Shown: positions 11,706-45,125 of the stretch, in pieces | How the letters are laid out: each line of letters opens with the position of its first letter | Position numbering within the stretch: the first letter of the stretch is position 1 | Sequence record: MK327934.1 | DNA: 64,000 nucleotides | Source: Escherichia phage vB_EcoM_G2469 | Direction: 5' to 3' (one strand) | Translations under genes and position numbers: made by a program | The notes under the pieces: model-generated | Told to the model about the DNA's origin: nothing | What the model saw: only the letters and a program-made list of their open reading frames with translations | The model's database searches: none

Positions 11706-11945
11706 CTATTTTTTAAGCATGAAAAGTAAGTAATTTGTATCACGTGGAGTAATATCAACACCCATATCAAAGATGCCTTTATAGATTGGGTATTTGTTTT
11801 CGGTTGTATCGAAGCTGAAACTATTTCCATCACAACTAACAGTAATAGCATCTGTTAAAATGTCATACTCAATCCTAACAATTGAATCCCCAATTTTAAC
11901 GTCGAGGTGTTTTTTGAATTTGATAAAATCTAATTCTTGGGCCAT
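11706..11945 (-). CDS. hypothetical protein
   Basis: 79-aa ORF. Confidence 0.45.
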   Translation of the reverse strand: MAQELDFIKFKKHLDVKIGDSIVRIEYDILTDAITVSCDGNSFSFDTTENKYPIYKGIFDMGVDITPRDTNYLLFMLKK

Positions 11946-12008
11946 GATATTTTCCTCATTTTAAGACGATAGGAAGATAATAACATGTCTTCCTATCGTT
12001 GTACATTA

Positions 12009-12209
12009 TTAACCGAACTTTTTAGCGCCTTTCCAGCCTTCGTACATAACTGCACAAGTCAGTAGTACAGCGTGCTGGCATTCTTTGTATTTGTAAATCC
12101 AGAACCAGCGTAAGAAGTCTTCATCCTCAACGCCGTTGAGTTTCATATTGGCAAAGAATTCGGCACGTTCTTCACGAAGCTTTTGCGATAACATAGATTC
12201 AGGATTCAT
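12009..12209 (-). CDS. hypothetical protein
   Basis: 66-aa ORF. Confidence 0.4.
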   Translation of the reverse strand: MNPESMLSQKLREERAEFFANMKLNGVEDEDFLRWFWIYKYKECQHAVLLTCAVMYEGWKGAKKFG

Positions 12210-12340
12210 TTTGTGTTCCAGGCCCCATTTTCATCGATGAACTTAATCCAGTCATTTACAGACCATTTAGTTGTATCACCCTTTGGATTAACATTTAAAG
12301 TATATAATCCCTGCTTAAAAAGCATTCGTTTGATATTCAT
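12206..12340 (-). CDS. hypothetical small protein (start trimmed to internal Met)
   Basis: ORF 12206..12433; internal start MNIKRMLFKQ avoids overlap with the upstream ORF. Confidence 0.3.
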   Translation of the reverse strand: MNIKRMLFKQGLYTLNVNPKGDTTKWSVNDWIKFIDENGAWNTK

Positions 12341-32148: not shown

Positions 32149-32261
32149 TTAGTTTCTCTTTTAGGTTGGGCCATTCCGTGGCGCATGAATTGTCCATTTC
32201 TGTATTTACCCCTCCAAGTAATTATGAATATACTATCACAATTCTAGGAGAAAGTAAACTG

Positions 32262-32564
32262 TTATTTACCTTTAATTACTTTAGCTGCTTCGATAGCCGC
32301 TTGCTGAAGGTCATCCATAGACATACCGAATTTAGAAGCAAAGTTATCAATTTTCTTTTCGACAGCATTCAAAGGCTTGGCCTGTTTACCTTCATTAGCG
32401 CCAGGAAGAGCGAGAATACGCTCTTTGTCAATATAAAGGCTTACAAGTTTCTTACGGTCTTTATCGGACAAATCATGAAATGAATGGGCCTTTTTATTTA
32501 TAGCGGCTTCTAATTTACCTGCACTCACTCGCGCTTCAGTAATAAATTCTTGATATGTTTTCAT
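32262..32564 (-). CDS. ipII: internal protein II-like (capsid-targeting sequence MKTYQEFITEA)
   Basis: 100 aa, N-terminal CTS, basic. Confidence 0.6.
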   Translation of the reverse strand: MKTYQEFITEARVSAGKLEAAINKKAHSFHDLSDKDRKKLVSLYIDKERILALPGANEGKQAKPLNAVEKKIDNFASKFGMSMDDLQQAAIEAAKVIKGK

Positions 32565-32605
32565 ATGTTTCCTTTAAATGTAAATAGGTCCGAGTATTAG
32601 CTTTA

Positions 32606-33184
32606 TTAGGAATTACGGGCTGCATTAGCAACGGCGTAAGCGTACTGAACATTAGCGTCTTTAAACGTGCCCTTAGTTGTATCTAGTTCTACCTTAAAAC
32701 CGCCTTTAGCCATAACATCGGCAAATTCTTTACGGAAAGCCATTGCATCAAGACCTTTCCATGATGATTTATGCTTGGCAAATTCAAGACCTGCGAAGTT
32801 GACAGCTTTAGCTAATTTATTATCAATGACCCATTTACCTGCTTTAGGCACAAACTTCGGACCTTTTTGTTTAGAGAACAGTTTTAAATTCCAGCGACGA
32901 AGGTCACTGTCGGCTTTAACAAAAGCTGCGTCTAAGTTACTAGCAACAACATCTTCAATATGAGCAAATTTAAGTCCGTCAACTTCAATATTTAGATCAT
33001 TACGCCAGCGTAGTCCTTCCCAAGCGAAGGCTTTAAAGTCGGAAGCCTTTGTAGCTAAGTACCGTTCAATAGGAGCTGTTTTAGGGTCAAAGCCGTTTCC
33101 GCCACGATAATTCCACTCGTCCTTATTAATGCCTTGAGCTTTTCCTGCAAAGGCTTCGGCGATAAATTCTTTATATGTTTTCAT
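32606..33184 (-). CDS. ipIII: internal protein III-like
   Basis: 192 aa, N-terminal MKTYKEFIAEA. Confidence 0.6.
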   Translation of the reverse strand: MKTYKEFIAEAFAGKAQGINKDEWNYRGGNGFDPKTAPIERYLATKASDFKAFAWEGLRWRNDLNIEVDGLKFAHIEDVVASNLDAAFVKADSDLRRWNLKLFSKQKGPKFVPKAGKWVIDNKLAKAVNFAGLEFAKHKSSWKGLDAMAFRKEFADVMAKGGFKVELDTTKGTFKDANVQYAYAVANAARNS

Positions 33185-33247
33185 TTTTGTTTCCTTGTTT
33201 GTTTTGATAGAGTAATTATACCATATTAATACTTAAGCGTAAACAAT

Positions 33248-33508
33248 TTAAGCTTTACCGCCAGAAATAATTCCGAAGTTGTTAAAATCGTATCCAATAT
33301 CGTCAACATCTACTTTAGGACTTACTACAACATAAGCAATTTCACTACGTTTTGCATAGGTGTTGATTTCTTTACCATCGCCACCTAAGAAAGAATACCC
33401 ATTACGTTTTAATGAGCCAAAGTCTTCGGCATCACCAATGAAAGCTTTAACTTTAAATTTAGGACCTTTGGCATCTGCTTCAGCGATAAATTCTTGATAC
33501 ATTTTCAT
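33248..33508 (-). CDS. internal-protein-like small protein
   Basis: 86 aa, N-terminal MKMYQEFIAEA. Confidence 0.5.
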   Translation of the reverse strand: MKMYQEFIAEADAKGPKFKVKAFIGDAEDFGSLKRNGYSFLGGDGKEINTYAKRSEIAYVVVSPKVDVDDIGYDFNNFGIISGGKA

Positions 33509-33514
33509 TTTTCC

Positions 33515-33928
33515 TTAGTAAATTGATTTACCATAGTATTTGTACCAAGTCGGACGTTGAGCAATTTTTTCATCTAAGCGTGCTTGACTTATCGCAATGG
33601 ACGCTTCAGACGGGACGTAATTATTACGAAATTCTATAGGAATGTCGGAAATATCCTGGACAGTCGTGTCCTTGATTTTGAAACCACGTTTCAAACATTC
33701 GGCTATTAGCTCGATTTGACGTAAACGTAAAAATTCGAGTTTGTCGTAAAAGAATGTTACGTGACCTGTGCCTAAGATAAATGTTGGAGAGATTTTAAAA
33801 TCCTTTACACGTTTACCGTTTTGAACATGTTTACGGACTGCACCAAATACGCGTGGTAATTCACGATACTCAGCCATAAGATGTTGGTCGGTCAGTTCAG
33901 AAACAAGTGTTAAATTGATACGGGTCAT
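33515..33928 (-). CDS. denV: endonuclease V (pyrimidine dimer DNA glycosylase) DenV
   Basis: [35 protein letters not shown]..., 137 aa, matches T4 DenV. Confidence 0.9.
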
Positions 33929-33931
33929 AAT

Positions 33932-33985
33932 TTCCTCCAAGTAGTTGATGAATGTATAGTATCAAAGTCCTTGGAGGAAGTAAAC
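33932..33985 (-). promoter_or_regulatory. denV promoter with 10-bp inverted repeat (TTCCTCCAAG/CTTGGAGGAA) linking spacer and RBS
   Basis: -35 GTTTAC (plus 33980-33985); arms 33932-33941 and 33970-33979. Confidence 0.5.
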
Positions 33986-33986
33986 A

Positions 33987-34268
33987 CTATTTTTCTGAAG
34001 CGCCTGAAATATATTTTTCAAGACGCTGTTTCATCAACGAGCCGTTCTTAGCGATTTCTTCCGGTTTATCGCACATACGCAACAATGCTTCAAGCTTAAC
34101 GATATCACTGGTGCGCTCAAATTTGCGAGTATCTATCTTACTAGCAAGTTCAGAAATACGTGCTAATAGACTTTCGGCTTCAACCAAAGCTGCACCTAGC
34201 TTAGTTGCAAATGTGTCAGTAGCTTCGTTAAGAATAGATTCTGATAAAAATTCACTATATGTTTTCAT
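33987..34268 (-). CDS. internal-protein-like small protein
   Basis: Start [11 protein letters not shown] (CTS-like); 93 aa. Confidence 0.45.
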
Positions 34269-34753
34269 ATATACGCTTTCCAAGTTCCTGTTTTAAATGT
34301 TGAGATTACGCGTTTCGCGCGATTAGGTGTCTGACGATACCATTTAGATTGGGCTAGATTTACTGCCGCTTCGTCCCAACGTTTCTGTTGAAGCATACGA
34401 AGAGAATTAGTAAAACCGGCGACGCCTGCTACACCCATTTGGAAGACCATATTGACCAATGCACAACGACGAACCGCATCTAAAGAATCATATACCGGTT
34501 TAAGTTTAGCATTACCCAAGATTCCGCGAACGGCTTTATCAACGTCTTCATTAAATAGCTTTTCAGCCTCATCAAGGGTAATTGTACCGTTGCATTTACG
34601 ACCGATCATTCTGTCAAGTTCAGCTTTAGCTACGGCTAAAGACGGGTTCTTTGTTACCAAATGGCCTATGCCAATCGTCCAAAAGCCTTCAGTGTCTTTG
34701 TATAAAGTCAGTCTAAGACCTTCGTCATTACGAAGCATTTCAAATATATTCAT
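34265..34753 (-). CDS. e: endolysin (T4 lysozyme)
   Basis: [32 protein letters not shown]..., matches T4 lysozyme. Confidence 0.95.
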
Positions 34754-34781
34754 AATACCTCCCACGTTTATAGGAGGTATT
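34754..34781 (-). promoter_or_regulatory. hairpin sequestering the gene e RBS (9-bp stem AATACCTCC/GGAGGTATT)
   Basis: Perfect inverted repeat immediately upstream of ATG 34751-34753; the downstream arm contains GGAGG; loop and upstream flank carry late-promoter-like TATAAA motifs. Confidence 0.55.
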
Positions 34782-34787
34782 TATTAC

Positions 34788-35246
34788 TTATAGGAGGGTA
34801 GTGAGCACCTTATATAATGATTTGCCCATTACATATTCCCATTGAGAAGGTTTAATTAAAGCGAATGCATCAAATTCAGGAATCTGTCGTCCGTCTGGGA
34901 ATGTATGATAGGAATTACAAACACTGTTTCTGAATTGCTCGTGCTCTACAGGGATGGTATATTGGAACAGATGAATATTCTTATTGTCTGAGTAATGATG
35001 TTCACCTAGGTCTTTCAGGAAGGCAGGGTCATATTGTGTAAACCCAGTTTCTTCTTCGCATTCACGAATAGCGGCTTCAATAGGAGATTCGCCAGGTTCG
35101 ACACGGCCTTTAGGAATATCCCACCGATGAGCTAAAGAACCTTTAGGACGAGAACCAGTTACACGGCCCATGAATAATTCTTTATCTTCGGTAAGGAAAA
35201 TAATACCAGCTGATAGTTCTTTCACTTTATTTTTCTTACTCATCAT
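34788..35246 (-). CDS. nudE: Nudix hydrolase NudE
   Basis: 152 aa, Nudix box GRVEPGESPIEAAIRECEEETG. Confidence 0.85.
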   Translation of the reverse strand: MMSKKNKVKELSAGIIFLTEDKELFMGRVTGSRPKGSLAHRWDIPKGRVEPGESPIEAAIRECEEETGFTQYDPAFLKDLGEHHYSDNKNIHLFQYTIPVEHEQFRNSVCNSYHTFPDGRQIPEFDAFALIKPSQWEYVMGKSLYKVLTTLL

Positions 35247-35487
35247 CTCGGTCCCATGATTTGGCCATTAATTCGGACATAAATTCTTCAATGCGCGTTT
35301 CTTTAGATGGACTTTCACTATTAGAGACCGCAAGTTTGTAATCTGCAATAGGACAGAACATATCAAGGTCCATATTAAGATCGTCTTTGATTTTTTCTTC
35401 TGACACATCTTTATCGTATGTGTACAGATAACTATCACATGATTCTGATTTAATGTAAATTGCTATACTCATCTCAAATTCCTGCAT
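35236..35487 (-). CDS. hypothetical acidic protein
   Basis: 83-aa ORF. Confidence 0.45.
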   Translation of the reverse strand: MQEFEMSIAIYIKSESCDSYLYTYDKDVSEEKIKDDLNMDLDMFCPIADYKLAVSNSESPSKETRIEEFMSELMAKSWDRDDE

Positions 35488-35867
35488 TCGGTAATAAAAC
35501 GTTCAACTTCATTATTCTTGGCCTTTATCTTGTCTTTACGTTCCTGTAAACTACTTTTAACAAGATTAATAATGATGCCTACAGTACCTCCACCAATAAT
35601 ACCACCAATAATACTTACGATAGTAGATGCTAATAAGATAGCGATAATATCTAGTATAGCAAAGGCACTTACTTTAGTACTAAAAAACCACACTGACGGT
35701 ACAAATATAATCCATCCTGTTATCCATTGGCACTTATTGAAAAACTTTTCAAGCTCAGCTTGAGTTGTTCGTATTACTTCATCGATAGGTTGATATCCAT
35801 TAATGTATCTGTTCACGATAATACCTGCTGGCTGGTTGATTTTAAATTCTTGGCAAATATGTTTCAC
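35469..35867 (-). CDS. hypothetical membrane protein
   Basis: 132 aa with hydrophobic, Gly-rich transmembrane segments. Confidence 0.5.
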   Translation of the reverse strand: MKHICQEFKINQPAGIIVNRYINGYQPIDEVIRTTQAELEKFFNKCQWITGWIIFVPSVWFFSTKVSAFAILDIIAILLASTIVSIIGGIIGGGTVGIIINLVKSSLQERKDKIKAKNNEVERFITECRNLR

Positions 35868-35948
35868 TAAGTAGGATGGACATCCTGTCCAATCTACTGA
35901 ATAATACGAAATACCTTCGTTGATTAGACCAATATGTTTTGTTAATCA

Positions 35949-36635
35949 TTACCAGCCTTCCATAGGGAATTCCAGATAAACTTGAGCGTTGACACGAATT
36001 TCATTGGTAATCTTTTTAACTCGGTCTGTATTACGAGATACACGTCCGAACCAACGCCATCCGTTACTAATTGCACGAGAACCAGTGTGCCATGTTTGCC
36101 AATCAAACTGAAGAAGAGTACGGTCTGGAGCTTCCCATTTCTCTAGTTCACCTTTTTCAATTTTTTCGAGGACTTCTTTGTGCCACTGACGATAGATAAG
36201 TTCGCCATCAGGAATCTGACTGAACTCTGCAGTTCCTGTTGCAAAATGAGTAGGACACACATCAGCGTTAACAAGACCAAGAATATGTTCAGACAAATAG
36301 CGAGGATTGTCATAATCTGGTTGTCCTGCTGTAATAAAGTGTTGACCGACTGGAATATCAGGGCGTGGTATGTCGTCATGGTGATATCCAGGAATAGCAG
36401 GATACCAACCAGGCATCAGCATGTGGACTCGTGAATCAAATACTACATCAGAGTCTTTCCAATCGTCAGGAAGATTTTGGATAAAGCTACGAGTAATTGG
36501 GCCGCCATTATCAAAAGCAAAATTCAAATCGCAGTTAAAGAACATAGGCTCGTTTTTAATCTGGTTGTTTTTAATCGCATGAGCAAAACCACCTACTGCA
36601 CGAGCTTGACTATTAAACACTTTAGAACTATTCAT
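35949..36635 (-). CDS. hypothetical protein
   Basis: 228-aa ORF. Confidence 0.5.
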   Translation of the reverse strand: MNSSKVFNSQARAVGGFAHAIKNNQIKNEPMFFNCDLNFAFDNGGPITRSFIQNLPDDWKDSDVVFDSRVHMLMPGWYPAIPGYHHDDIPRPDIPVGQHFITAGQPDYDNPRYLSEHILGLVNADVCPTHFATGTAEFSQIPDGELIYRQWHKEVLEKIEKGELEKWEAPDRTLLQFDWQTWHTGSRAISNGWRWFGRVSRNTDRVKKITNEIRVNAQVYLEFPMEGW

Positions 36636-36636
36636 A

Positions 36637-36942
36637 TTATTTTCCTCGACATTCTTTAATGAAATTTTCTAGATTGGTAGATTCAATAGCTTTTTTACGA
36701 GCTTCTGCGTGTTCTTCTTCTGACAATTTACATTTATAATTGACCCAGACATTATGGTCGAAACTAGTCGTGGCATATAATAACAAAGCTCCGACGAATA
36801 ATAAAAACGGTGATAAGAATACAAAACCAGGAACACCATCCATACTGTAAGCCTTTTGTAATACTGCAACAGAAAGAGTTGCGTAAAAAAGTGATGCAAA
36901 TATTGTTAAAAGACCAATTCGGTTGGTTTCGCCTAATTTCAT
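36637..36942 (-). CDS. hypothetical membrane protein
   Basis: 101 aa, two hydrophobic helices. Confidence 0.5.
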   Translation of the reverse strand: MKLGETNRIGLLTIFASLFYATLSVAVLQKAYSMDGVPGFVFLSPFLLFVGALLLYATTSFDHNVWVNYKCKLSEEEHAEARKKAIESTNLENFIKECRGK

Positions 36943-37012
36943 AATATTCTCCTCATGTTTTGGTAGGACTACTATAACATAGTCCTATAATTGTGTAAAC
37001 AGTTTTGCGAAA

Positions 37013-37969
37013 TTATTTGAAAGGTTTTACCATATGGAAATTTTGTTTGAAACGTTTGACGTAATCGTCATGTCCTAAGCTTTGGTACATACTTACTACT
37101 TTGCTGTAGTTTTCCCAGGCGTATTCACGGAACCAACCGGAGGTGATGCTTGTGCAGACTTTTTCTAATGCCATCATGAAACTGGCTTCAGGGTTAATTT
37201 TAAAGTCATTAGGAATCTGAGAACGTTCTAATGCTAGTACACATGATTCTTCATATACACCGGCCAATTTGACCATTTCTGGTAACGATTCGAACTTCTC
37301 GCGTGAGGTCATGACTTCAGAACCGTCTTTCATATAAAATGTATAAGCCGGACGGTCTGTTAGTGCAATGGCTTCATGAATAGTATCATGGTCATATGTA
37401 TAGATGTCATCTTTAAAGAACGCACTTTTAGAAGTGTCAAGAACCGGGTGAGCATAGTTCAAGGTTTCTTTCTGGCGTTTCAGCATAATTTCAGTAAGTT
37501 CATCGTTCAGTGTAACACCTTTACCACGAAGATACTGAATATGGTTCATAGTCTTTAAAAAGAATGGATTATTTTTCTTGAAACGATGAGACATCTTAAT
37601 TGCAAGGCACATCTCAGGAGTTGCCCAGTAAAACCCGTTCAAACGGTCTTTAGTCAAATTTTTCTTGGCGTATTTTAAAAGGTCATAAGAAGACGTGAAA
37701 TCTTCAGGAGTGAGTTCACCAACTAATTCACGGACATTAGTGATTGCCGGAACAATATATGCTTCAAAATGAGTTTCGCGTCCATTATGGAAGCATTTGA
37801 AAACTTGGACATCAGGGTTATCTTGGTGAACATATACACCCATCATTTGATTTTTGAATGCATTCCAAGAACATTGGTCCGCAATAAAGTCCCAATCACT
37901 ATTTTTGATAGCGCTAGAATCAATAAGACCGTGATAGTGAAGTGCACGAGAACCAATAACCAACATCAT
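37013..37969 (-). CDS. hypothetical protein
   Basis: 318-aa ORF. Confidence 0.5.
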   Translation of the reverse strand: MMLVIGSRALHYHGLIDSSAIKNSDWDFIADQCSWNAFKNQMMGVYVHQDNPDVQVFKCFHNGRETHFEAYIVPAITNVRELVGELTPEDFTSSYDLLKYAKKNLTKDRLNGFYWATPEMCLAIKMSHRFKKNNPFFLKTMNHIQYLRGKGVTLNDELTEIMLKRQKETLNYAHPVLDTSKSAFFKDDIYTYDHDTIHEAIALTDRPAYTFYMKDGSEVMTSREKFESLPEMVKLAGVYEESCVLALERSQIPNDFKINPEASFMMALEKVCTSITSGWFREYAWENYSKVVSMYQSLGHDDYVKRFKQNFHMVKPFK

Positions 37970-37997
37970 AATATTTTCCTCGGATTAATTCATTAAC

Positions 37998-38249
37998 TTA
38001 AATTTCACGACATGCGATATTATATTCATCCCAGAGGTCATCATGTGAAGCCTCTACCAAAGGAACGATTGTACCGTTTATGTCTTCATTATAAGGGCAA
38101 ATTGTACAGTGCGCATCTTCGAATCGGATGCCTTTGTGTTCAGATTTTTTATAACGCATATCGAATATCTTTGCAAACTTTTCACGAGTAATGGTTTTAC
38201 CAACCACTTTGGTTCCGATACTTTCGTAATAAATCATTGTGGACTCCAT
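37998..38249 (-). CDS. hypothetical protein
   Basis: 83-aa ORF. Confidence 0.45.
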   Translation of the reverse strand: MESTMIYYESIGTKVVGKTITREKFAKIFDMRYKKSEHKGIRFEDAHCTICPYNEDINGTIVPLVEASHDDLWDEYNIACREI

Positions 38250-38256
38250 TTGTTTT

Positions 38257-38295
38257 GATAGGACTACTATAACATAGCCCTATCTTGTTGTAAAC
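38257..38295 (-). promoter_or_regulatory. early-promoter cassette with palindrome around the -10
   Basis: Plus gataggactactataacatagccctatcttgttgtaaac. Confidence 0.4.
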
Positions 38296-38299
38296 TGTT

Positions 38300-38497
38300 T
38301 TAGCAAGAATAACTAGATGATACCCAGCCTTGAACAGTGATACTATTGTGGGATAATGAGATCGCGTCCTGGAGATTCAGACCTGCGTTATCTTCAATCC
38401 ATAATGTAACTTCTTCGCGTTCTTCTGTTGCAATTTGGAACAGGTTTTCCAGGGCAGCTACTGCCGTACGTACAGCACAATCTAATTCACGAGACAT
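38300..38497 (-). CDS. small protein, paralog family with C-terminal G-W-V-x-S-S-x-x-C
   Basis: 65 aa ending GWVSSSYSC. Confidence 0.45.
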   Translation of the reverse strand: MSRELDCAVRTAVAALENLFQIATEEREEVTLWIEDNAGLNLQDAISLSHNSITVQGWVSSSYSC

Positions 38498-38506
38498 ATG
38501 ATTTCC

Positions 38507-38779
38507 TTAACAAGTGTGAGAAGATGCAACCCAACCGCCATCTTCAAGGCTCAGGTTGTAGTCGTATTGGTAAACGTCGGCCCATTCAGCATAGCCGTTT
38601 TTTGTACAACGTTCAAGATCGGCTTTAAGATGTCCGGGTGAATGATAGGTTCCACCCATACCATAAGCTGGGTACAAGTCGAATGTTGTGTTTTGTTTAT
38701 CAGCAATTTCTTTGGCAGCCTCAATAGCTGCATAGATTTTTGCTACAGCTTCAGCCAGTTCGGTTTGTTCTTTAGACAT
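38507..38779 (-). CDS. small protein, same paralog family
   Basis: 90 aa ending GGWVASSHTC. Confidence 0.45.
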   Translation of the reverse strand: MSKEQTELAEAVAKIYAAIEAAKEIADKQNTTFDLYPAYGMGGTYHSPGHLKADLERCTKNGYAEWADVYQYDYNLSLEDGGWVASSHTC

Positions 38780-38788
38780 AATGATTCC

Positions 38789-39094
38789 TTAGCACAACGC
38801 TGAAGACGAAACCCAAGCACCTTCAGTAATAACGTAACCATTACCTTCACGCTTAACATCGCCACCATTATTTTCAATTTCATTTTTCATCCACTGGGAT
38901 ACGATTTCACCCTTAGGATAATAAGTACGACCGCTACCATAATCACCTACAGAAAATGATACGGCATATTGGTCTGCGATCTTTGTTGCTTCTTCTTCAA
39001 TACGTTCAGCTTGATTCAGAAGTTTATAAATTGCATCTGAAGCGGATTTGGCATCATTAAACTCTGGTACTTTAATTTCAATAATCTTACTCAT
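38789..39094 (-). CDS. small protein, same paralog family
   Basis: 101 aa ending GAWVSSSALC. Confidence 0.45.
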   Translation of the reverse strand: MSKIIEIKVPEFNDAKSASDAIYKLLNQAERIEEEATKIADQYAVSFSVGDYGSGRTYYPKGEIVSQWMKNEIENNGGDVKREGNGYVITEGAWVSSSALC

Positions 39095-39192
39095 TTTCTA
39101 CATTCCTTAATAAAGTTTTCTATTGTTTCATTTTCACGTCTAGCTAGGAGTTCATTATAACTAATCATTTGAGAAGCGTAAACAGCATAAAT

Positions 39193-39615
39193 TCAGTTCA
39201 GGCTTTTGCATCTTATTTCCTTAACGAATTCCATAGCTTCTTCATATTCATACTTTTTAACAGCTTCATCATACTGAGCTTTGGCTTTCGCGCACTGAAC
39301 TTTCCATTCACGAACTCGAGCTCTGTGATGACGGCCTTGGTACCAATATCCCACCAAGTTAATAGGCATTAATAAAAATGGCACAATAAACGACCCGGCT
39401 ATAATAAGTAAAAACACTGCATCAGACGATATAACTTCACTAGAATCTAAAACAGCTCCTATAATCATAAAGATTAAAAATGCTAAAGCTAAAATAGGGC
39501 CAAATAGTACTTCATTTGGGATTAATTTACGCTTGTATTCGTATGCCCAGGGCTTAATTGGCATGTACAGGGTTGGCTTTGACATATTCTCTACATTCCA
39601 TAATAAATTGCTCAA
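39193..39615 (-). CDS. hypothetical membrane protein
   Basis: 140 aa with hydrophobic core segments. Confidence 0.45.
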   Translation of the reverse strand: MSNLLWNVENMSKPTLYMPIKPWAYEYKRKLIPNEVLFGPILALAFLIFMIIGAVLDSSEVISSDAVFLLIIAGSFIVPFLLMPINLVGYWYQGRHHRARVREWKVQCAKAKAQYDEAVKKYEYEEAMEFVKEIRCKSLN

Positions 39616-40177
39616 GGATTAAATTGTTAGTGAAATTAGGACTAACAACCATAGTTTCATAAAGCGCATCAATAGCACTTAAAGCATCAACTCTTTTAAG
39701 CAAAGGCTTGCCTTCATACATAGTTTCAGAATCGATGATTAACGTAAAGTAATATTTTTTATTATCGACTAGAACTTCCGTATCGATATAAAACATATTA
39801 GACCTCAGAAGCTTATCTCTAAAACCATAATAATCTTCAGAGCGTTCGCTGATATATTCCCATTCAGTGTTTAAACAACAAACAGACCATGTAGGAGCAA
39901 CGAAATCAGTGAATCTAATATCATGGTCTGCAACTAGTTTAGCAATAGCTCCGATATCATGAATCATAATACCTGGGGCTAATAAAGATTTTCTGCTATG
40001 GCTAGCCGTTTTCTCAGTAGTCTCATAAGAAGACGACCAGTACCATTTACGTCCAGTTGCAACATATCGTAATGAATCAACTAAAGACGTAGGTGGATTT
40101 ACCTTATTTCGGAACTCTTCGAACATTGAGTCAATATCATTATTTTGGTTTCGCATGTTAACTCCTTTATTATCCAA
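39554..40177 (-). CDS. hypothetical protein
   Basis: 207-aa ORF. Confidence 0.45.
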   Translation of the reverse strand: MDNKGVNMRNQNNDIDSMFEEFRNKVNPPTSLVDSLRYVATGRKWYWSSSYETTEKTASHSRKSLLAPGIMIHDIGAIAKLVADHDIRFTDFVAPTWSVCCLNTEWEYISERSEDYYGFRDKLLRSNMFYIDTEVLVDNKKYYFTLIIDSETMYEGKPLLKRVDALSAIDALYETMVVSPNFTNNLILEQFIMECREYVKANPVHAN

Positions 40178-40205
40178 AAGGAGGACCGGAGTCCTCCGTA
40201 TTATT

Positions 40206-40814
40206 TTATTTCAAAGAGTTAATATATTCTTGTACATCAGCAGAAGTGGTTTCGACGCCAGCTGGAGTGCCATTGAACGTTTCAACACGAGTCAGAGTGT
40301 CTTCGATATCAACCTTAGTCAGTGCAGCGATTTCAATTACATCATCAGCCGTAGAGATACCAAGGGCATTGGCTGCTCGAGTTTCACGAATGTATTCGAG
40401 TTTGATTGCCAGATTCTGACGAGCATCATCAAGTTCAACCACCTTACGAGCAATTTCAATTCGCATAGCGGCGTACCCGTCAGCTTTTGTATTAAGTTGT
40501 TCGGCAGTTCGACGATACAGAAGACCAAGCTTAGCATGCATAGTAACATCTTGTCCTTCGGCCAGGAGCTTACGAATTTCACGTTCCTTAGAAGCGGCTT
40601 GCTTGTTCTTTTCATTAACAAGTTCGCGAATACGTTTTTCTTCATTAATAGATTTAACAGAAGCCGTTTTTAGTTCTTTGATTTGGGTAATCAACTTATC
40701 TGCAGCTGCGTTATACTGTTCTTCGACAGTCAGATTTTTAGCCATAGCAGTACCCAGTTTAGTGCGGATGAATTCAACAAGTTTCTTCAGTGTGTTCATA
40801 TTATTACCTTTCAA
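40206..40814 (-). CDS. hypothetical coiled-coil protein (weak PspA/IM30-like character)
   Basis: 202 aa, long predicted helical/coiled-coil region. Confidence 0.4.
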
Positions 40815-40869
40815 TTGGTGGTTTATTATCCAACGAGAGCATTATACTCTGCTCTCAAGAGTTTGTAAA

Positions 40870-41097
40870 TTATTTTTTAATCAAATTGACATAAAACTTG
40901 GCGTCTTCGGGGTGCATGCCTTCGCAGTATTCTTCAACCATGAACTTCTTAATAGCTTCATAAGGACCACTCAGATTAAGCTCAGTTGTCCAGAACTTGG
41001 AATCTTGGGCTGAATCGATACGAACTTCAGGGTGACGGTTGCGAATAACTTCTTCGGTGTATTCATAATCAACGACATCAATACTAACTGTAGCCAT
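40870..41097 (-). CDS. hypothetical protein
   Basis: 75-aa ORF. Confidence 0.45.
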   Translation of the reverse strand: MATVSIDVVDYEYTEEVIRNRHPEVRIDSAQDSKFWTTELNLSGPYEAIKKFMVEEYCEGMHPEDAKFYVNLIKK

Positions 41098-41376
41098 TTT
41101 GTTTTCCTCTTGATTTGATAGGACTACTATAACATAAACTTACTTAGATGTAAATTATTTCAACGTCACCTTTAGCTGCTTTATAACCTTCAGCCCAAGA
41201 TACAACAGAGTTTTTATCTGAGGATTCAAATTCAGGCATTGGACTTTCACCAATATTCACACAGTATGTTTCTTCATTTTCATCGAACCAAATAATTAAA
41301 GTAGTCATTTTGTTTACTCCTCTGTAGTTGATAAGTCTATAGTATCACCATCCTTGGTGCTTGTACATCATTATTT

Positions 41377-41682
41377 TTAATTTTTCCAACTTAACAACTT
41401 GTAGTGTCCTTCATTCATACGTGGTTTATCCCAAGAAATACTAATATATGATTCGCTGTCAATAGAAGTCGCCGGGTTTTTCTCTACCGTAAGACCTTCA
41501 CTTTCCAGCCATTCAATAGTATTTGCGCATAAATCAGAAGAACACCTAATCGGAAACCGGCAAGATTTTTCACCTTTAGCTGCAGTGTTATACATCTTTT
41601 CTAAAATACGCTTTTGCACGTTTTTAAAAATAGTTTCAGCAGATTCTTCAGATTTTTTATTCAGTTCAGTGTAAAGACTCAT
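41377..41682 (-). CDS. hypothetical protein
   Basis: 101-aa ORF. Confidence 0.45.
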   Translation of the reverse strand: MSLYTELNKKSEESAETIFKNVQKRILEKMYNTAAKGEKSCRFPIRCSSDLCANTIEWLESEGLTVEKNPATSIDSESYISISWDKPRMNEGHYKLLSWKN

Positions 41683-41770
41683 AATATTCTCCTCATGTTT
41701 TGATAGGTCTATAGTAACACATCTAGGGAAGAAGTAAACAACTTTTTCAGTAAGTTATAGACCCCCTAAA

Positions 41771-41786
41771 GGGGACCGAAGTCCCC
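41771..41786 (-). terminator. post-ORF UUCG hairpin (terminator or stabiliser)
   Basis: ggggaccgaagtcccc just after the stop of ORF 41792..42418. Confidence 0.4.
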
Positions 41787-41791
41787 ATTCT

Positions 41792-42418
41792 TTACTTACG
41801 AGTTTTTGCATACTGAGCAGCGTCAGCAGCCAAACGACCTGCCTGACGAAGTTTTTCTTTAATCGCATCGTGAAGTGGTTGAGTGTACTTCAAACCTTCG
41901 ATAGTCAAATAAAGACGATAAAGGTCCGGGGTATCAAGGTTGTTGATATGTTGGCCATTACGAAGAATATTGAATTCACGAACGAGTGAAGATGTATCGG
42001 ATTCAATATCACGAACAAGCGAAGATAGTTGTTTATATTTTTTTTCCAGACTAGAAGTATCAAACTTAAGAGCAGGAGCTTTAGGAGTTGCTTTTACTTC
42101 AGGCTTAGGCTCAGGTTTTGCTATTGCTTTAGGGGTCGCAGGTTTAGGAATGGAAGGAGTAGGTTTTACTTTAGGCGAACCCGATTTAGCAGAAACACCA
42201 CCACTAACAATATCTTTGAATGCTTTAGAAGCTCTGTAATATTCTTTTTGGCTGGAAGTGTCGATACCGTACATGGCTTGAACGTTTTTGAAAAACTCTG
42301 TACTAGTTTTTGTACCAGAAATAGCATCGTAAGCAGCTTGCCATTTCTCTTTTGTCATACGTACACCGGCTTCGGTGATTACTTCCGTTTCGGCTAAAAA
42401 TTCATTAAAAGTATACAT
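41792..42418 (-). CDS. internal-protein-like protein with Pro/Lys-rich linker
   Basis: 208 aa, N-terminal MYTFNEFLAETE (CTS-like); late promoter upstream. Confidence 0.5.
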   Translation of the reverse strand: MYTFNEFLAETEVITEAGVRMTKEKWQAAYDAISGTKTSTEFFKNVQAMYGIDTSSQKEYYRASKAFKDIVSGGVSAKSGSPKVKPTPSIPKPATPKAIAKPEPKPEVKATPKAPALKFDTSSLEKKYKQLSSLVRDIESDTSSLVREFNILRNGQHINNLDTPDLYRLYLTIEGLKYTQPLHDAIKEKLRQAGRLAADAAQYAKTRK

Positions 42419-42453
42419 CGATGGTCCTTAGAAAGTAGGTTTATTGTTTACTA

Positions 42454-42461
42454 TATTTATA
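42454..42461 (-). promoter_or_regulatory. T4-type late promoter TATAAATA (minus strand)
   Basis: Plus tatttata about 36 nt upstream of ATG 42416-42418. Confidence 0.5.
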
Positions 42462-42462
42462 C

Positions 42463-42491
42463 AAAAAAGCCCCAACCTTTCGGAAGGGGCT
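42463..42491 (-). terminator. intrinsic terminator (minus strand)
   Basis: Plus aaaaaagccccaacctttcggaaggggct; near-duplicate of the 26594-26621 terminator. Confidence 0.6.
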
Positions 42492-42531
42492 ATATACCTT
42501 GTCGGGGTTCCACCTGCTAAGGCAAGTGTTT

Positions 42532-42625
42532 GTACGAAACGCCGGGATTCGAACCCGGTTATTAAGTAGTTGACGCTACTCAATATTTTTAAAAGGCCAT
42601 ATCTCGACCATATCCGAACGTTCCG
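42532..42625 (-). ncRNA. tRNA-like element (canonical T-arm plus acceptor-like stem; degenerate tRNA or stable small RNA)
   Basis: Minus strand has CCGGG-TTCGAAT-CCCGG followed by CGTTTCG that can pair with CGGAACG about 85 nt upstream; D and anticodon arms do not fold canonically. Confidence 0.3.
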
Positions 42626-42793
42626 TCAAAAACGCTACTCGGCTTACGGCAAAGATATTTCCTCGAATCGATAATTCGGTGCGCCGTTTCTGCTGTGATA
42701 TAAGGGGGCATTAACAAAACATAAAGATTTATTAATGCCAGTCCTTACTCAGGGAACATCAGTCCGACGACTTACCGGTAGCGACCCGGCTTC

Positions 42794-43138
42794 TTATTTT
42801 GGCATATCATCAATTTGCTCTCGACGCCGACGCCATAGATTAATCGCTTCATAAACACATTCTGCGTTTGGTATATGACGGCAATAATATAATGATTCGC
42901 GTTTCTGGAATCGATGTTGCAATGGGATTTCGTTTAAAAGGTCTTTACGGTCAAAGTATTCAAAACTAGTTAACCTGGAACGGTTTTTAATGAACTTCCA
43001 ATGACCAAATTCATTTTGAACATAGATGTAATCTGCATGTTGGTATAACAAATTAATCAATCGGTCTGAAATAACTGTATCATGTTCGTTAAAATAAAAC
43101 GTTAAATCATGAACTACTAAGTAAACATTACCTTTCAT
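42794..43138 (-). CDS. hypothetical protein
   Basis: ORF 42794..43186 trimmed to internal start MKGNVYLVVHDL so it does not overlap tRNA-Arg. Confidence 0.4.
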   Translation of the reverse strand: MKGNVYLVVHDLTFYFNEHDTVISDRLINLLYQHADYIYVQNEFGHWKFIKNRSRLTSFEYFDRKDLLNEIPLQHRFQKRESLYYCRHIPNAECVYEAINLWRRRREQIDDMPK

Positions 43139-43156
43139 ATTTTCCTCACTTAAAAT

Positions 43157-43233
<77 letters not shown>

Positions 43234-43333
43234 ATGATGCGGCTTTGGGTGTTTCAGTGTTACTCGTTTGTAGGTTCTACTTTTAACCCTTATTCGAACA
43301 ACTTACCTACCTAAGAGCGTACTCACCGCGAAT

Positions 43334-43408
43334 TGGTGGCCCTGGCTGGTTTCGATCCAGCTACCTATCAGTTATGAGCTGACAGCTCTCCCATTGAGCT
43401 ACAGGGCC
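43334..43408 (-). tRNA. tRNA with CAU anticodon (Met, or Ile if C34 is modified)
   Basis: Hand fold GGCCCTG-TA-GCTC-AATGGGA-GAGC-T-GTCAG-CTCATAA-CTGAT-AGGTA-GCTGG-ATCGAAA-CCAGC-CAGGGCC-A-CCA. Confidence 0.7.
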
Positions 43409-43504
43409 TAAATAACTTTCTATTATGAAAGGCACTTGAGGGAGCACCTTTGGTAATAGAGGGTAGATTAATAATAACACATAATTCTTAAAGCAAATTA
43501 CGTT

Positions 43505-43795
43505 TTACCGTACCATATTAATGTAGTTATATTCAATGCAACGTAATTTCAAAGGGTTCTTGAAAATATCATATTCAAGAGGGCCTTTTTCTGTTTCAAT
43601 AAAGAAATCAAAGTTAACTGTGTTAAATTTAACGTCTTCACAGAGTAATTTAACTTGTGAAGATGAACGGTCGATATAAACCTTTTCAACCTCAAAGATA
43701 GTCAGAATACCGTAGTCATTAACCAGTGCTTTAGCTGCACGTTGGTCGCTTTCATATCCGTTCTCAATGGACGATACTTTAGCATAAAGAATCAT
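43505..43795 (-). CDS. hypothetical protein
   Basis: 96-aa ORF. Confidence 0.45.
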   Translation of the reverse strand: MILYAKVSSIENGYESDQRAAKALVNDYGILTIFEVEKVYIDRSSSQVKLLCEDVKFNTVNFDFFIETEKGPLEYDIFKNPLKLRCIEYNYINMVR

Positions 43796-44154
43796 GAATG
43801 TTCCACCATTTCAAAGGTATGAGCATCAACAATATGATACCAGTCAAAATTTTCTTCCGCGTTTTTATAAATTTCGCGAAGAGCTTCAACAGTTTTTCCT
43901 GTAGCAACAAGATCGTCAATACCACCAAGAGGATAACAGTAATAACCAGCAAACAGAAGGAAATTAATAGTTTCTGTAGGTTCTGGATGCAGAACACCGT
44001 TATCATCTACCACTTCAAAGAAAGTGTAAGAAGGAGTACAAGTTTTAATCCAAACCCATGCTTGGGCTGCTGAATCAAATGGTCTGCGTATCAAACGACA
44101 ATCAGGGTCTTTAGAAGGATTTGCGTCAAAATCTGCATATACATGATATTTCAT
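43792..44154 (-). CDS. hypothetical protein
   Basis: 120-aa ORF. Confidence 0.5.
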   Translation of the reverse strand: MKYHVYADFDANPSKDPDCRLIRRPFDSAAQAWVWIKTCTPSYTFFEVVDDNGVLHPEPTETINFLLFAGYYCYPLGGIDDLVATGKTVEALREIYKNAEENFDWYHIVDAHTFEMVEHS

Positions 44155-44361
44155 TTACTCACCTTTTGCAATTTTATCCATAACGATAGCGATTAAGCCG
44201 ATTAGAAATGCTACTACCAATGAGATAGAATTTTCTGTTGTTGTCAGTAGTCCACAAATGAATCCTACAAACATCGAAAAACTAAAAGCCATTGAAGCAA
44301 TTACTACAGCAACATTACGAATCAGTTCAGCGCGTTTCATTTTATTTCTCCATTTACTCAT
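44155..44361 (-). CDS. hypothetical membrane protein
   Basis: 68 aa, two hydrophobic helices. Confidence 0.45.
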   Translation of the reverse strand: MSKWRNKMKRAELIRNVAVVIASMAFSFSMFVGFICGLLTTTENSISLVVAFLIGLIAIVMDKIAKGE

Positions 44362-44409
44362 TTGTTTTGATAGGACTACTATAACATATCCCTATAGGCT
44401 TGTATACCT

Positions 44410-44673
44410 TTATTTCAAATATATTGCGTATTTTTTATAGCCACCAGGCTCGTGTCGAAGACCTTTATCATTCGCAAAACGTTGAATGTTATTGAACTGA
44501 TTTTCATCAAGTTCGGATGTGTCAAATACGAAAAAGTTTCGTTTGTTACCAAGCGTGATATGCGGAGTTAAGTCAATGTTATACAAATTAAGAATATCAG
44601 CAATAACCTGATTGACCGCTTTGTTAATTTTCACACCAGATGATTCTGAGATGAATTCGTTGAAAGTTTTCAT
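44410..44673 (-). CDS. internal-protein-like small protein
   Basis: Start MKTFNEFISES (CTS-like). Confidence 0.45.
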   Translation of the reverse strand: MKTFNEFISESSGVKINKAVNQVIADILNLYNIDLTPHITLGNKRNFFVFDTSELDENQFNNIQRFANDKGLRHEPGGYKKYAIYLK

Positions 44674-44696
44674 TTTAGGTTCCATTTGGTTGTTTT

Positions 44697-44735
44697 GATA
44701 GGACTACTATAACATAGTCCTATCGTGTTGTAAAT
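44697..44735 (-). promoter_or_regulatory. early-promoter cassette with perfect palindrome GATAGGACT-N10-AGTCCTATC
   Basis: Plus gataggactactataacatagtcctatcgtgttgtaaat. Confidence 0.45.
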
Positions 44736-45046
44736 TATTTTATGCCTTTAGAAGAAATGGTATTTTGGCGTTTAACCCCTGTTTGTGAAAAATCGTGGTT
44801 ATCGATTTGGTCGACTCGCATAACACCAAATGCAGATTTAATTTTAGCCTTTGAACCTTTTTTGATACTAATTATCATATAAGTATCATTTTTCTTATAT
44901 TCGAAATTTGTTACTTCAACGCCTTGATTAGAAATTGACTTAATAATAGCATTAGCGTATTCATCATCTAACGGACCGGTGGTGTTAATAATAAAATTTT
45001 TATCGGCTTTAGTAGCTTCAGCGATAAACTCTTGATAAGTTTTCAT
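44735..45046 (-). CDS. internal-protein-like protein (ipI position)
   Basis: 103 aa, N-terminal MKTYQEFIAEA. Confidence 0.5.
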   Translation of the reverse strand: MKTYQEFIAEATKADKNFIINTTGPLDDEYANAIIKSISNQGVEVTNFEYKKNDTYMIISIKKGSKAKIKSAFGVMRVDQIDNHDFSQTGVKRQNTISSKGIK

Positions 45047-45125
45047 TTGTTTTTTCCGTTTGGTTTGTGATTTGATATGATGATAGTATCACACCATCAT
45101 CCTTATGTAAACTGTTTTGTGAAAA

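Follow-up and report, generated by a model that had tools for sequence, protein, structure and literature searches.

A 64-kb stretch of the genome of Escherichia phage vB_EcoM_G2469 (sequence record MK327934.1), here called the window, carries seven small genes whose products begin with a capsid targeting sequence (CTS) of the kind found on the internal proteins (Ips) of phage T4. We refer to these open reading frames (ORFs) as A to G, in order of ascending coordinates; all are encoded on the minus strand. The seven genes very probably constitute the Ip palette of an RB69/JS09-like Mosigvirus, that is, a set of proteins that would be packaged into the head, cut by the gp21 protease, injected with the DNA and most likely directed against GmrSD restriction enzymes. 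An earlier note on this DNA, made from the sequence alone, had already pointed to these N-termini; its observation is confirmed and its interpretation supported, but the feature is an ordinary one, described since 1994 as a variable palette and thus already known. What is partly new is the family of E, phrog_2280, which lies at a third locus and represents a modest lead only.

Exactly seven ORFs within the 64 kb start with the pattern M-x-x-[YF]-x-E-F-[IL]-x-E. When the core motif [YF]xEF[ILVM]xE was sought in all six frames, it was found seven times, each time at the N-terminus of one of A–G on the coding strand, and nowhere else in the 64 kb. Over 200 shuffles of the sequence, the mean number of core matches was 0.17, and only 0.005 with an initiating methionine three residues upstream. 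The earlier note had described seven ORFs with a narrower start pattern: all seven are real, but the pattern fits only five of them exactly, since B has Lys at position 5 and E has Tyr rather than Lys at position 2. The positions by which it designated the ORFs are their stop-codon ends, and the N-termini lie at the opposite ends.

In the following, the higher coordinate is the N-terminal end, placed at the ATG used in annotated relatives, and a slash marks the predicted cut. A (32262–32564; 100 residues; MKTYQEFITE/A; mature isoelectric point (pI) 9.7) is an orthologue of IpII, with 94% amino acid identity to the T4 protein and DNA 94.4% identical to that of T4, and belongs to phrog_7857, "internal virion protein" (E-value 4.5e-55). 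B (32606–33184; 192 residues; MKTYKEFIAE/A; mature pI 9.6) is an orthologue of IpIII, 91% identical to that of T4 (phrog_5341, E-value 2.7e-117). C (33248–33508; 86 residues; MKMYQEFIAE/A; mature pI 6.4) falls into phrog_2667, "internal head protein" (E-value 4.3e-21), and is so labelled in many public records, including the RefSeq record of p000v, and as "hypothetical" in others. D (33987–34268; 93 residues) begins MKTY at the ATG at 34268, has a serine directly after position 10 and belongs to phrog_3499, "internal head protein" (E-value 1.2e-46); its equivalent in phage mogra is mogra_153, a "putative internal head protein". (In the mechanical ORF list, D starts at a TTG a few codons upstream, as MESVYMKTY...) E (41792–42418; 208 residues; MYTFNEFLAE/TEVITE/AG; mature pI 9.7) has a CTS-like start and matches phrog_2280, "unknown function" (E-value 1.9e-57). 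F (44410–44673; 87 residues; MKTFNEFISE/S; mature pI 9.0) is of the Ip9 type (phrog_7673, "internal head protein", E-value 4.8e-49), corresponding to mogra_129, "Ip9 putative internal head protein"; the mechanical list starts it as MEPKMKTF..., upstream of the ATG at 44673 that relatives use. G (44735–45046; 103 residues; MKTYQEFIAE/A; mature pI 9.5) is of the Ip7 type (phrog_2667, E-value 2e-38), with homologues named Ip7 and an equivalent, mogra_128, called "internal head protein 7". The mogra annotation also names the equivalents of ipII and ipIII. Six of the seven ORFs, all except E, thus fall into PHROGs whose annotation is internal head or virion protein (7857, 5341, 2667 twice, 3499 and 7673), and this homology, together with the literature, supports the idea of a diversified injected set that is probably directed against restriction.

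In T4 IPIII, the first ten residues suffice for incorporation into the head (Mullaney and Black 1996, summarised in PMC9026906). Targeting was mapped to positions 4 and 7 and gp21 processing to positions 8 and 10, and position 2, which was tested too, was not found to be critical (PMC9026906). The targeting determinants, Tyr or Phe at position 4 and Phe at position 7, are present in all seven of the proteins described here, as are the gp21 determinants, Ile or Leu at position 8 and Glu at position 10, followed by Ala, Ser or Thr. The resulting cleavage sites are I-T-E/A, I-A-E/A (three times), L-S-E/S, L-A-E/T and I-S-E/S; D and E have a second (I/L)-x-E/A site a few residues downstream, which in E is E16-A17. 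With the four mapped positions kept in 7/7 and A and B orthologous to IpII and IpIII, the N-termini are indeed of the prohead-directing type of the T4 internal proteins. The gp21 protease and scaffold genes lie outside the window, and their presence was read from mogra, which is 97.9% identical over the region: in its 20-67-68-21-22-23 block, the gp21 equivalent is a Peptidase_S77 (E-value 2.9e-107), and GP67 is present. For A and B, packaging, cleavage and injection would follow from published work, which has established them for the T4 orthologues IpII and IpIII only. C, D, E, F and G can be expected from the motif to be packaged in the same way as the T4 Ips.

Behind the leaders, the proteins have little in common. 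The bodies after residue 11 show no significant pairwise similarity by BLASTP, the sole exception being a weak match between F and G (E-value 6e-4), which bears out their description as divergent. Even C and G, which share a PHROG, align directly over the leader only when tested for paralogy. The codons of the seven leaders differ at synonymous sites, and it is therefore the peptide that is conserved and not a DNA repeat. Scans of all seven proteins against Pfam and NCBIfam gave nothing above threshold and no enzymatic domain, and sequence searches of the PDB with C, G and an E-family profile found no relatives, T4 IPI* included. An AlphaFold2 (AF2) model of G has a small beta-alpha-beta-beta-alpha-beta domain followed by a disordered basic tail. 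Its matches in the PDB were marginal, generic ferredoxin/ACT-like folds (best E-value 2.4e-3), with T4 IPI* not among the top 50, and no functional inference is drawn from them.

The genomic setting is T4-like. The best of the 1028 phage records that match a 14-kb stretch is that of Escherichia phage FL31, with 97.8% identity at 98% coverage; next come mogra, p000v and JS09, and all four are Mosigvirus (Tevenvirinae). The gene order on the minus strand is that of the T4 map: 2, 3, 1, 57A, 57B, ipI locus, tRNA.4-.2, tRNAs, e.6-e.2, nudE, e, denV and the ipIII/ipII locus. The classical ip loci hold six of the seven genes, A–D around denV and e, and F and G adjoining 57B, where G occupies the ipI locus. 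Directly upstream of B, of F and of G lies a promoter of the T4 early type, TTTAC[AG]-17-TAxxxT. That of B, which also lies upstream of A, is a sigma-70 promoter, TTTACG-17-TATAAT (33215–33243, minus strand; 10/12 in a consensus scan, plus a TG extension). F has TTTACA-17-TATAGT with an overlapping, PeSL-like perfect 10-bp inverted repeat (44697–44734, minus strand), and G has TTTACA-17-TACTAT with an overlapping 9-bp inverted repeat (45079–45111, minus strand). A starts 41 nt downstream of B, and the consensus scan revealed no separate promoter for it. C begins 6 nt past the stop codon of denV, and a gap of 63 nt separates it from B. D and the lysozyme gene e share the sequence ATGA (34265–34268), in which the ATG of D overlaps the codon that ends e, an arrangement that suggests translational coupling of this putative internal protein to e.

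PeSL promoter-hairpin modules have been proposed to mediate the shuffling of cassettes at ip loci (PMC4122927). The shared start could then be a recombination or translation-initiation module that was copied along in this shuffling, and some of the proteins, especially E, would be cytoplasmic and never packaged. Recombination at these loci has indeed been proposed to occur at conserved leader or regulatory sequences (PMC4122927), PeSL-like modules are found upstream of F and G, and direct packaging data are missing for five members. However, the leaders vary at synonymous codons while the four mapped residues are invariant in kind, and the upstream contexts differ from gene to gene (three early-type promoters, a late-type box before E, and the placing of A behind B, of D on the e stop codon and of C behind denV). 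In addition, the E family has kept its leader across genera at an overall identity of 30–40%. We therefore regard a mere by-product of shuffling as highly improbable, and a CTS that is kept for packaging as the better explanation.

What do these proteins do? Each of the three T4 proteins Ip1, Ip2 and Ip3 blocks a different type IV restriction enzyme of the GmrSD family (Silas et al. 2025, PMC12373910). IpIII is also required for infection of ECOR17 (Srikant et al.). By analogy, A and B can be expected to block ECOR21-type and ECOR17-type GmrSD enzymes, respectively, and the targets of C–G may be like those of the T4 Ips. In the sequence of events that we propose, each protein would be made with its 10-residue N-terminal CTS, which would bind it to the scaffolding core during prohead assembly, the aromatic residue at position 4 and Phe7 being the targeting determinants. 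The gp21 protease would then cut after Glu10 in (I/L)-x-E, and the mature protein, freed in the head, would stay with the packaged DNA. Upon infection, the mature proteins would be ejected with the DNA and be active before any phage gene is expressed. Their most likely job would be the one-to-one inhibition of GmrSD variants that cut DNA with sugar-modified cytosines, and recombination, by swapping cassettes, would make the palette differ among related phages. Observed here are the motif, the homology, the promoters and, in a near-identical genome, the protease; packaging, cleavage, injection and the anti-GmrSD activity of Ip1–3 are taken from published work on T4.

Proteins packaged by means of the CTS could also serve a mainly physical purpose, as basic counter-ions, DNA-condensing fillers or minor parts of the core or scaffold. 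Such a role would suit E above all, with its histone-tail-like linker rich in Pro, Lys and Ala, its conservation across at least seven genera and its late-type box, which is a feature of structural genes. It would also agree with the basic character of five of the seven mature forms (pI 9.0–9.7), with the roughly 1000 internal protein molecules that are embedded in the DNA of a T4 head (PMC3012670), and with the ten other ip genes that had no anti-GmrSD activity in the one screen done (PMC12373910). On the other hand, all three T4 Ips have specific anti-restriction targets, C and D are near-neutral (pI 6.3–6.4), and the high turnover of the genes among close relatives fits an arms race better. 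A mainly physical role is thus unlikely, and an anti-restriction function remains the preferred reading.

There are, however, several points that weigh against this reading. The "internal head protein" labels that C, D, F and G carry in the databases were probably assigned from the same N-terminal motif and are therefore not independent evidence. For C, D, E, F and G, neither virion proteomics nor N-terminal sequencing was found in the literature. The ten further ip genes in the screen of Silas et al. gave no new anti-GmrSD inhibition (PMC12373910), and a GmrSD target for every Ip is unproven. Phages of the present type have arabinose-modified, not glucose-modified, cytosines (PMC13326640), and so the relevant restriction enzymes may differ. 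Finally, E departs from the other members: it has Tyr2 instead of Lys, is twice as long, and has a late-type box, as opposed to the early-type promoters of B, F and G. It belongs to no described Ip family and lies outside the classical ip loci.

E is nevertheless the one modest lead: alone among the seven, it seems to have gone without an internal-protein label so far. Its 138 matching records are called "hypothetical protein" wherever an annotation is listed, as is every named database cluster. The search for E-type proteins covered Mosigvirus, Dhakavirus-like phages, Winklervirus, Karamvirus, Kanagawavirus, Marfavirus and Yersinia phage fHe-Yen9-01. In the alignment, which comprised Mosigvirus, JS98-like phages, Winklervirus, Karamvirus, Kanagawavirus, Marfavirus, Kosakonia phage 305 and fHe-Yen9-01, every protein starts with M-[KLY]-x-[FY]-[NK]-E-F-[IL]-x-E-[ST]. 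A second [IL]-[ST]-E-A site usually follows the leader, and E16 is invariant. Since the leader has been kept across at least seven genera at only 30–40% overall identity, selection appears to act on the peptide. On balance, we favour the view, based on these sequence comparisons, that E and phrog_2280 represent an unrecognised and widespread class of head-packaged T4-type internal proteins at a third ip locus, and the family probably merits re-annotation as a candidate internal protein. In its AF2 model, a small helical N-domain is joined to a confidently predicted helical C-domain (residues 120–208) by a disordered Pro/Lys/Ala linker (74–113). Foldseek searches of the PDB and BFVD with this model returned its own family only, the remainder being non-significant helical hairpins. 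No virion proteomics that covers the E family was found: phiR1-RT has such data but lacks the gene, and the papers on the fPS phages and GADS24 contain no virion mass spectrometry.

The locus of E lies between RB69ORF146c/frd.3 (the e.6/frd.3 block) and the rnaC-rnaD-tRNA cluster. As the earlier note had it, E has its own late promoter: a T4-type late promoter box, TATAAATA, was located by sequence scan at 42454–42461 on the minus strand, 35 nt before the ATG, immediately preceded by a hairpin and a T6 run (42463–42490). The octamer is not enriched in the window (9 observed versus 8.2 expected), so that it gains weight solely from where it lies, upstream of E, and from being conserved in other genera. 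Boxes that match it (TATAAATA, GATAAATA or CATAAATA) occupy the same upstream place in the E homologues of Karamvirus, Marfavirus, Winklervirus and Kanagawavirus. In mogra, the E position is occupied by a second allele, mogra_134 (11747–12211 of the mogra stretch), which encodes 154 residues starting MKSYAEFLTEQ..., matches the same PHROG (E-value 1.1e-53) and has a late-promoter-like box, AATAAATA, after the same terminator as E. With this divergent allele in mogra, the third locus would itself be polymorphic. The family consists of two divergent allele types, that of E with 138 phage records and that of mogra_134 with 512, many Tequatrovirus among them. No E-family gene was seen in the corresponding region of T4, where the CTS scan found ipII and ipIII only.

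Some features around E deserve mention in their own right. The minus strand at 42459–42799, just downstream of tRNA-Arg, is 90.9% identical to the T4 rnaC and rnaD region, which specifies the stable "species 1 and 2" RNAs; its terminal hairpin and T-run sit directly before the late promoter of E, and it matches no Rfam family. The ORFs listed at 42428–42583 and 42589–42717 are probably spurious. Just downstream of E, RB69ORF146c (41377–41682, minus strand) encodes 101 residues whose start, MSLYTELNKK..., is faintly leader-like in its Y4, E6 and L7 and is devoid of a cleavage motif. This ORF, which is extended to 167 residues in mogra, is probably not an Ip; together with an internal methionine of denV, it was the only hit of a looser N-terminal scan, and both were rejected as false positives. 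Further along, three tandem ORFs of 65, 90 and 101 residues (38300–39094, minus strand) share a C-terminal G-x-W-V-x-S-S-x-x-C and look like a local paralogous family equivalent to RB69ORF136c/137c/139c.

How unusual is a set of seven? At least ten Ip types have been known from T-even relatives since Repoila et al. 1994 (cited in PMC12373910), and in the stretches that were scanned, close relatives hold six to eight CTS genes, compared to seven in this window and three in the corresponding region of T4. The count for T4 agrees with the three internal proteins previously credited to it. A set of seven is neither new nor unusual. FL31 has eight CTS genes, the extra one being Ip10-like (MKTYKEFIAESANQ...) and placed between ipIII and C (32646–32960 of the FL31 stretch). 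In mogra there are seven, including the different allele at the E locus; no further CTS-type start was found in the other 123 kb of its genome, and the set can therefore be taken as complete in this type of phage. JS09 has IpI, D, Ip10, IpII, E and a truncated C, with IpI and Ip10 instead of Ip7, Ip9 and IpIII. The ipII-ipIII cassette (window 32229–33196 compared with T4 63500–76500) is 91–94% identical in nucleotides, as against 69–83% for the neighbouring conserved genes, and lies on the opposite side of denV from where it is in T4. Identity above that of the flanks, combined with the changed position relative to denV, fits lateral exchange and suggests a fairly recent transfer between the Tequatrovirus and Mosigvirus lineages.

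Because Ips act before phage genes are expressed, they contribute to the range of wild E. coli strains open to infection by a T4-type phage, and this role in host range is relevant to the choice of phages for therapy. The window itself reveals no new principle: its palette is typical of Mosigvirus, and for two of the members the T4 orthologues have been characterised experimentally. For C–G, a screen could use type IV restriction enzymes with a specificity for arabinosylated DNA. Should E prove to be packaged, the injected protein would be a conserved and not a hypervariable one, probably with a target unlike those of the small Ips.

Compared with T4, the genes described here share with IPI–III the 10-residue CTS with its gp21 site and the same two loci, one near denV and e and the other adjoining 57B. 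The order is different, e-ipIII-ipII-denV in T4 and e-D-denV-C-ipIII-ipII in the window. T4 has IPI, whereas the window has no IPI orthologue and carries Ip7 and Ip9 types at the ipI locus instead. (The early promoter and hairpin upstream of T4 ipI are nonetheless arranged like those of G.) The propeptide of T4 IPI and of the IpI of RB69 and JS09 has 19 residues (MKTFKEFTSTTTPVSTITE/A), longer than that of any of the seven. T4 Alt resembles the Ips in being a head-packaged protein that gp21 trims at (I/L)-x-E and that is injected and active before phage gene expression (PMC9026906). In contrast to Alt, which is a large ADP-ribosyltransferase and has a propeptide at either end, the seven proteins are small (86–208 residues) and match no enzymatic domain. 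The Dar proteins of phage P1 are likewise packaged in the head, ejected with the DNA and able to blunt restriction (PMC12810830), with sequences unrelated to those of the seven. A further parallel is the Ip4–Ip13 set of the T-even relatives (Repoila, Tetart, Bouet and Krisch 1994, reviewed in PMC3012670, PMC9026906 and PMC12373910). T-even internal proteins in general form a highly diverse defence set with only the CTS in common (PMC3012670), and the window shares with Ip4–Ip13 the unrelated small bodies behind a conserved CTS, which close relatives swap at the ip loci. F is of the Ip9 type and G of the Ip7 type, and FL31 and JS09 carry Ip10; the Ip4–Ip13 genes occupy the classical ip loci, whereas E is found at a third.

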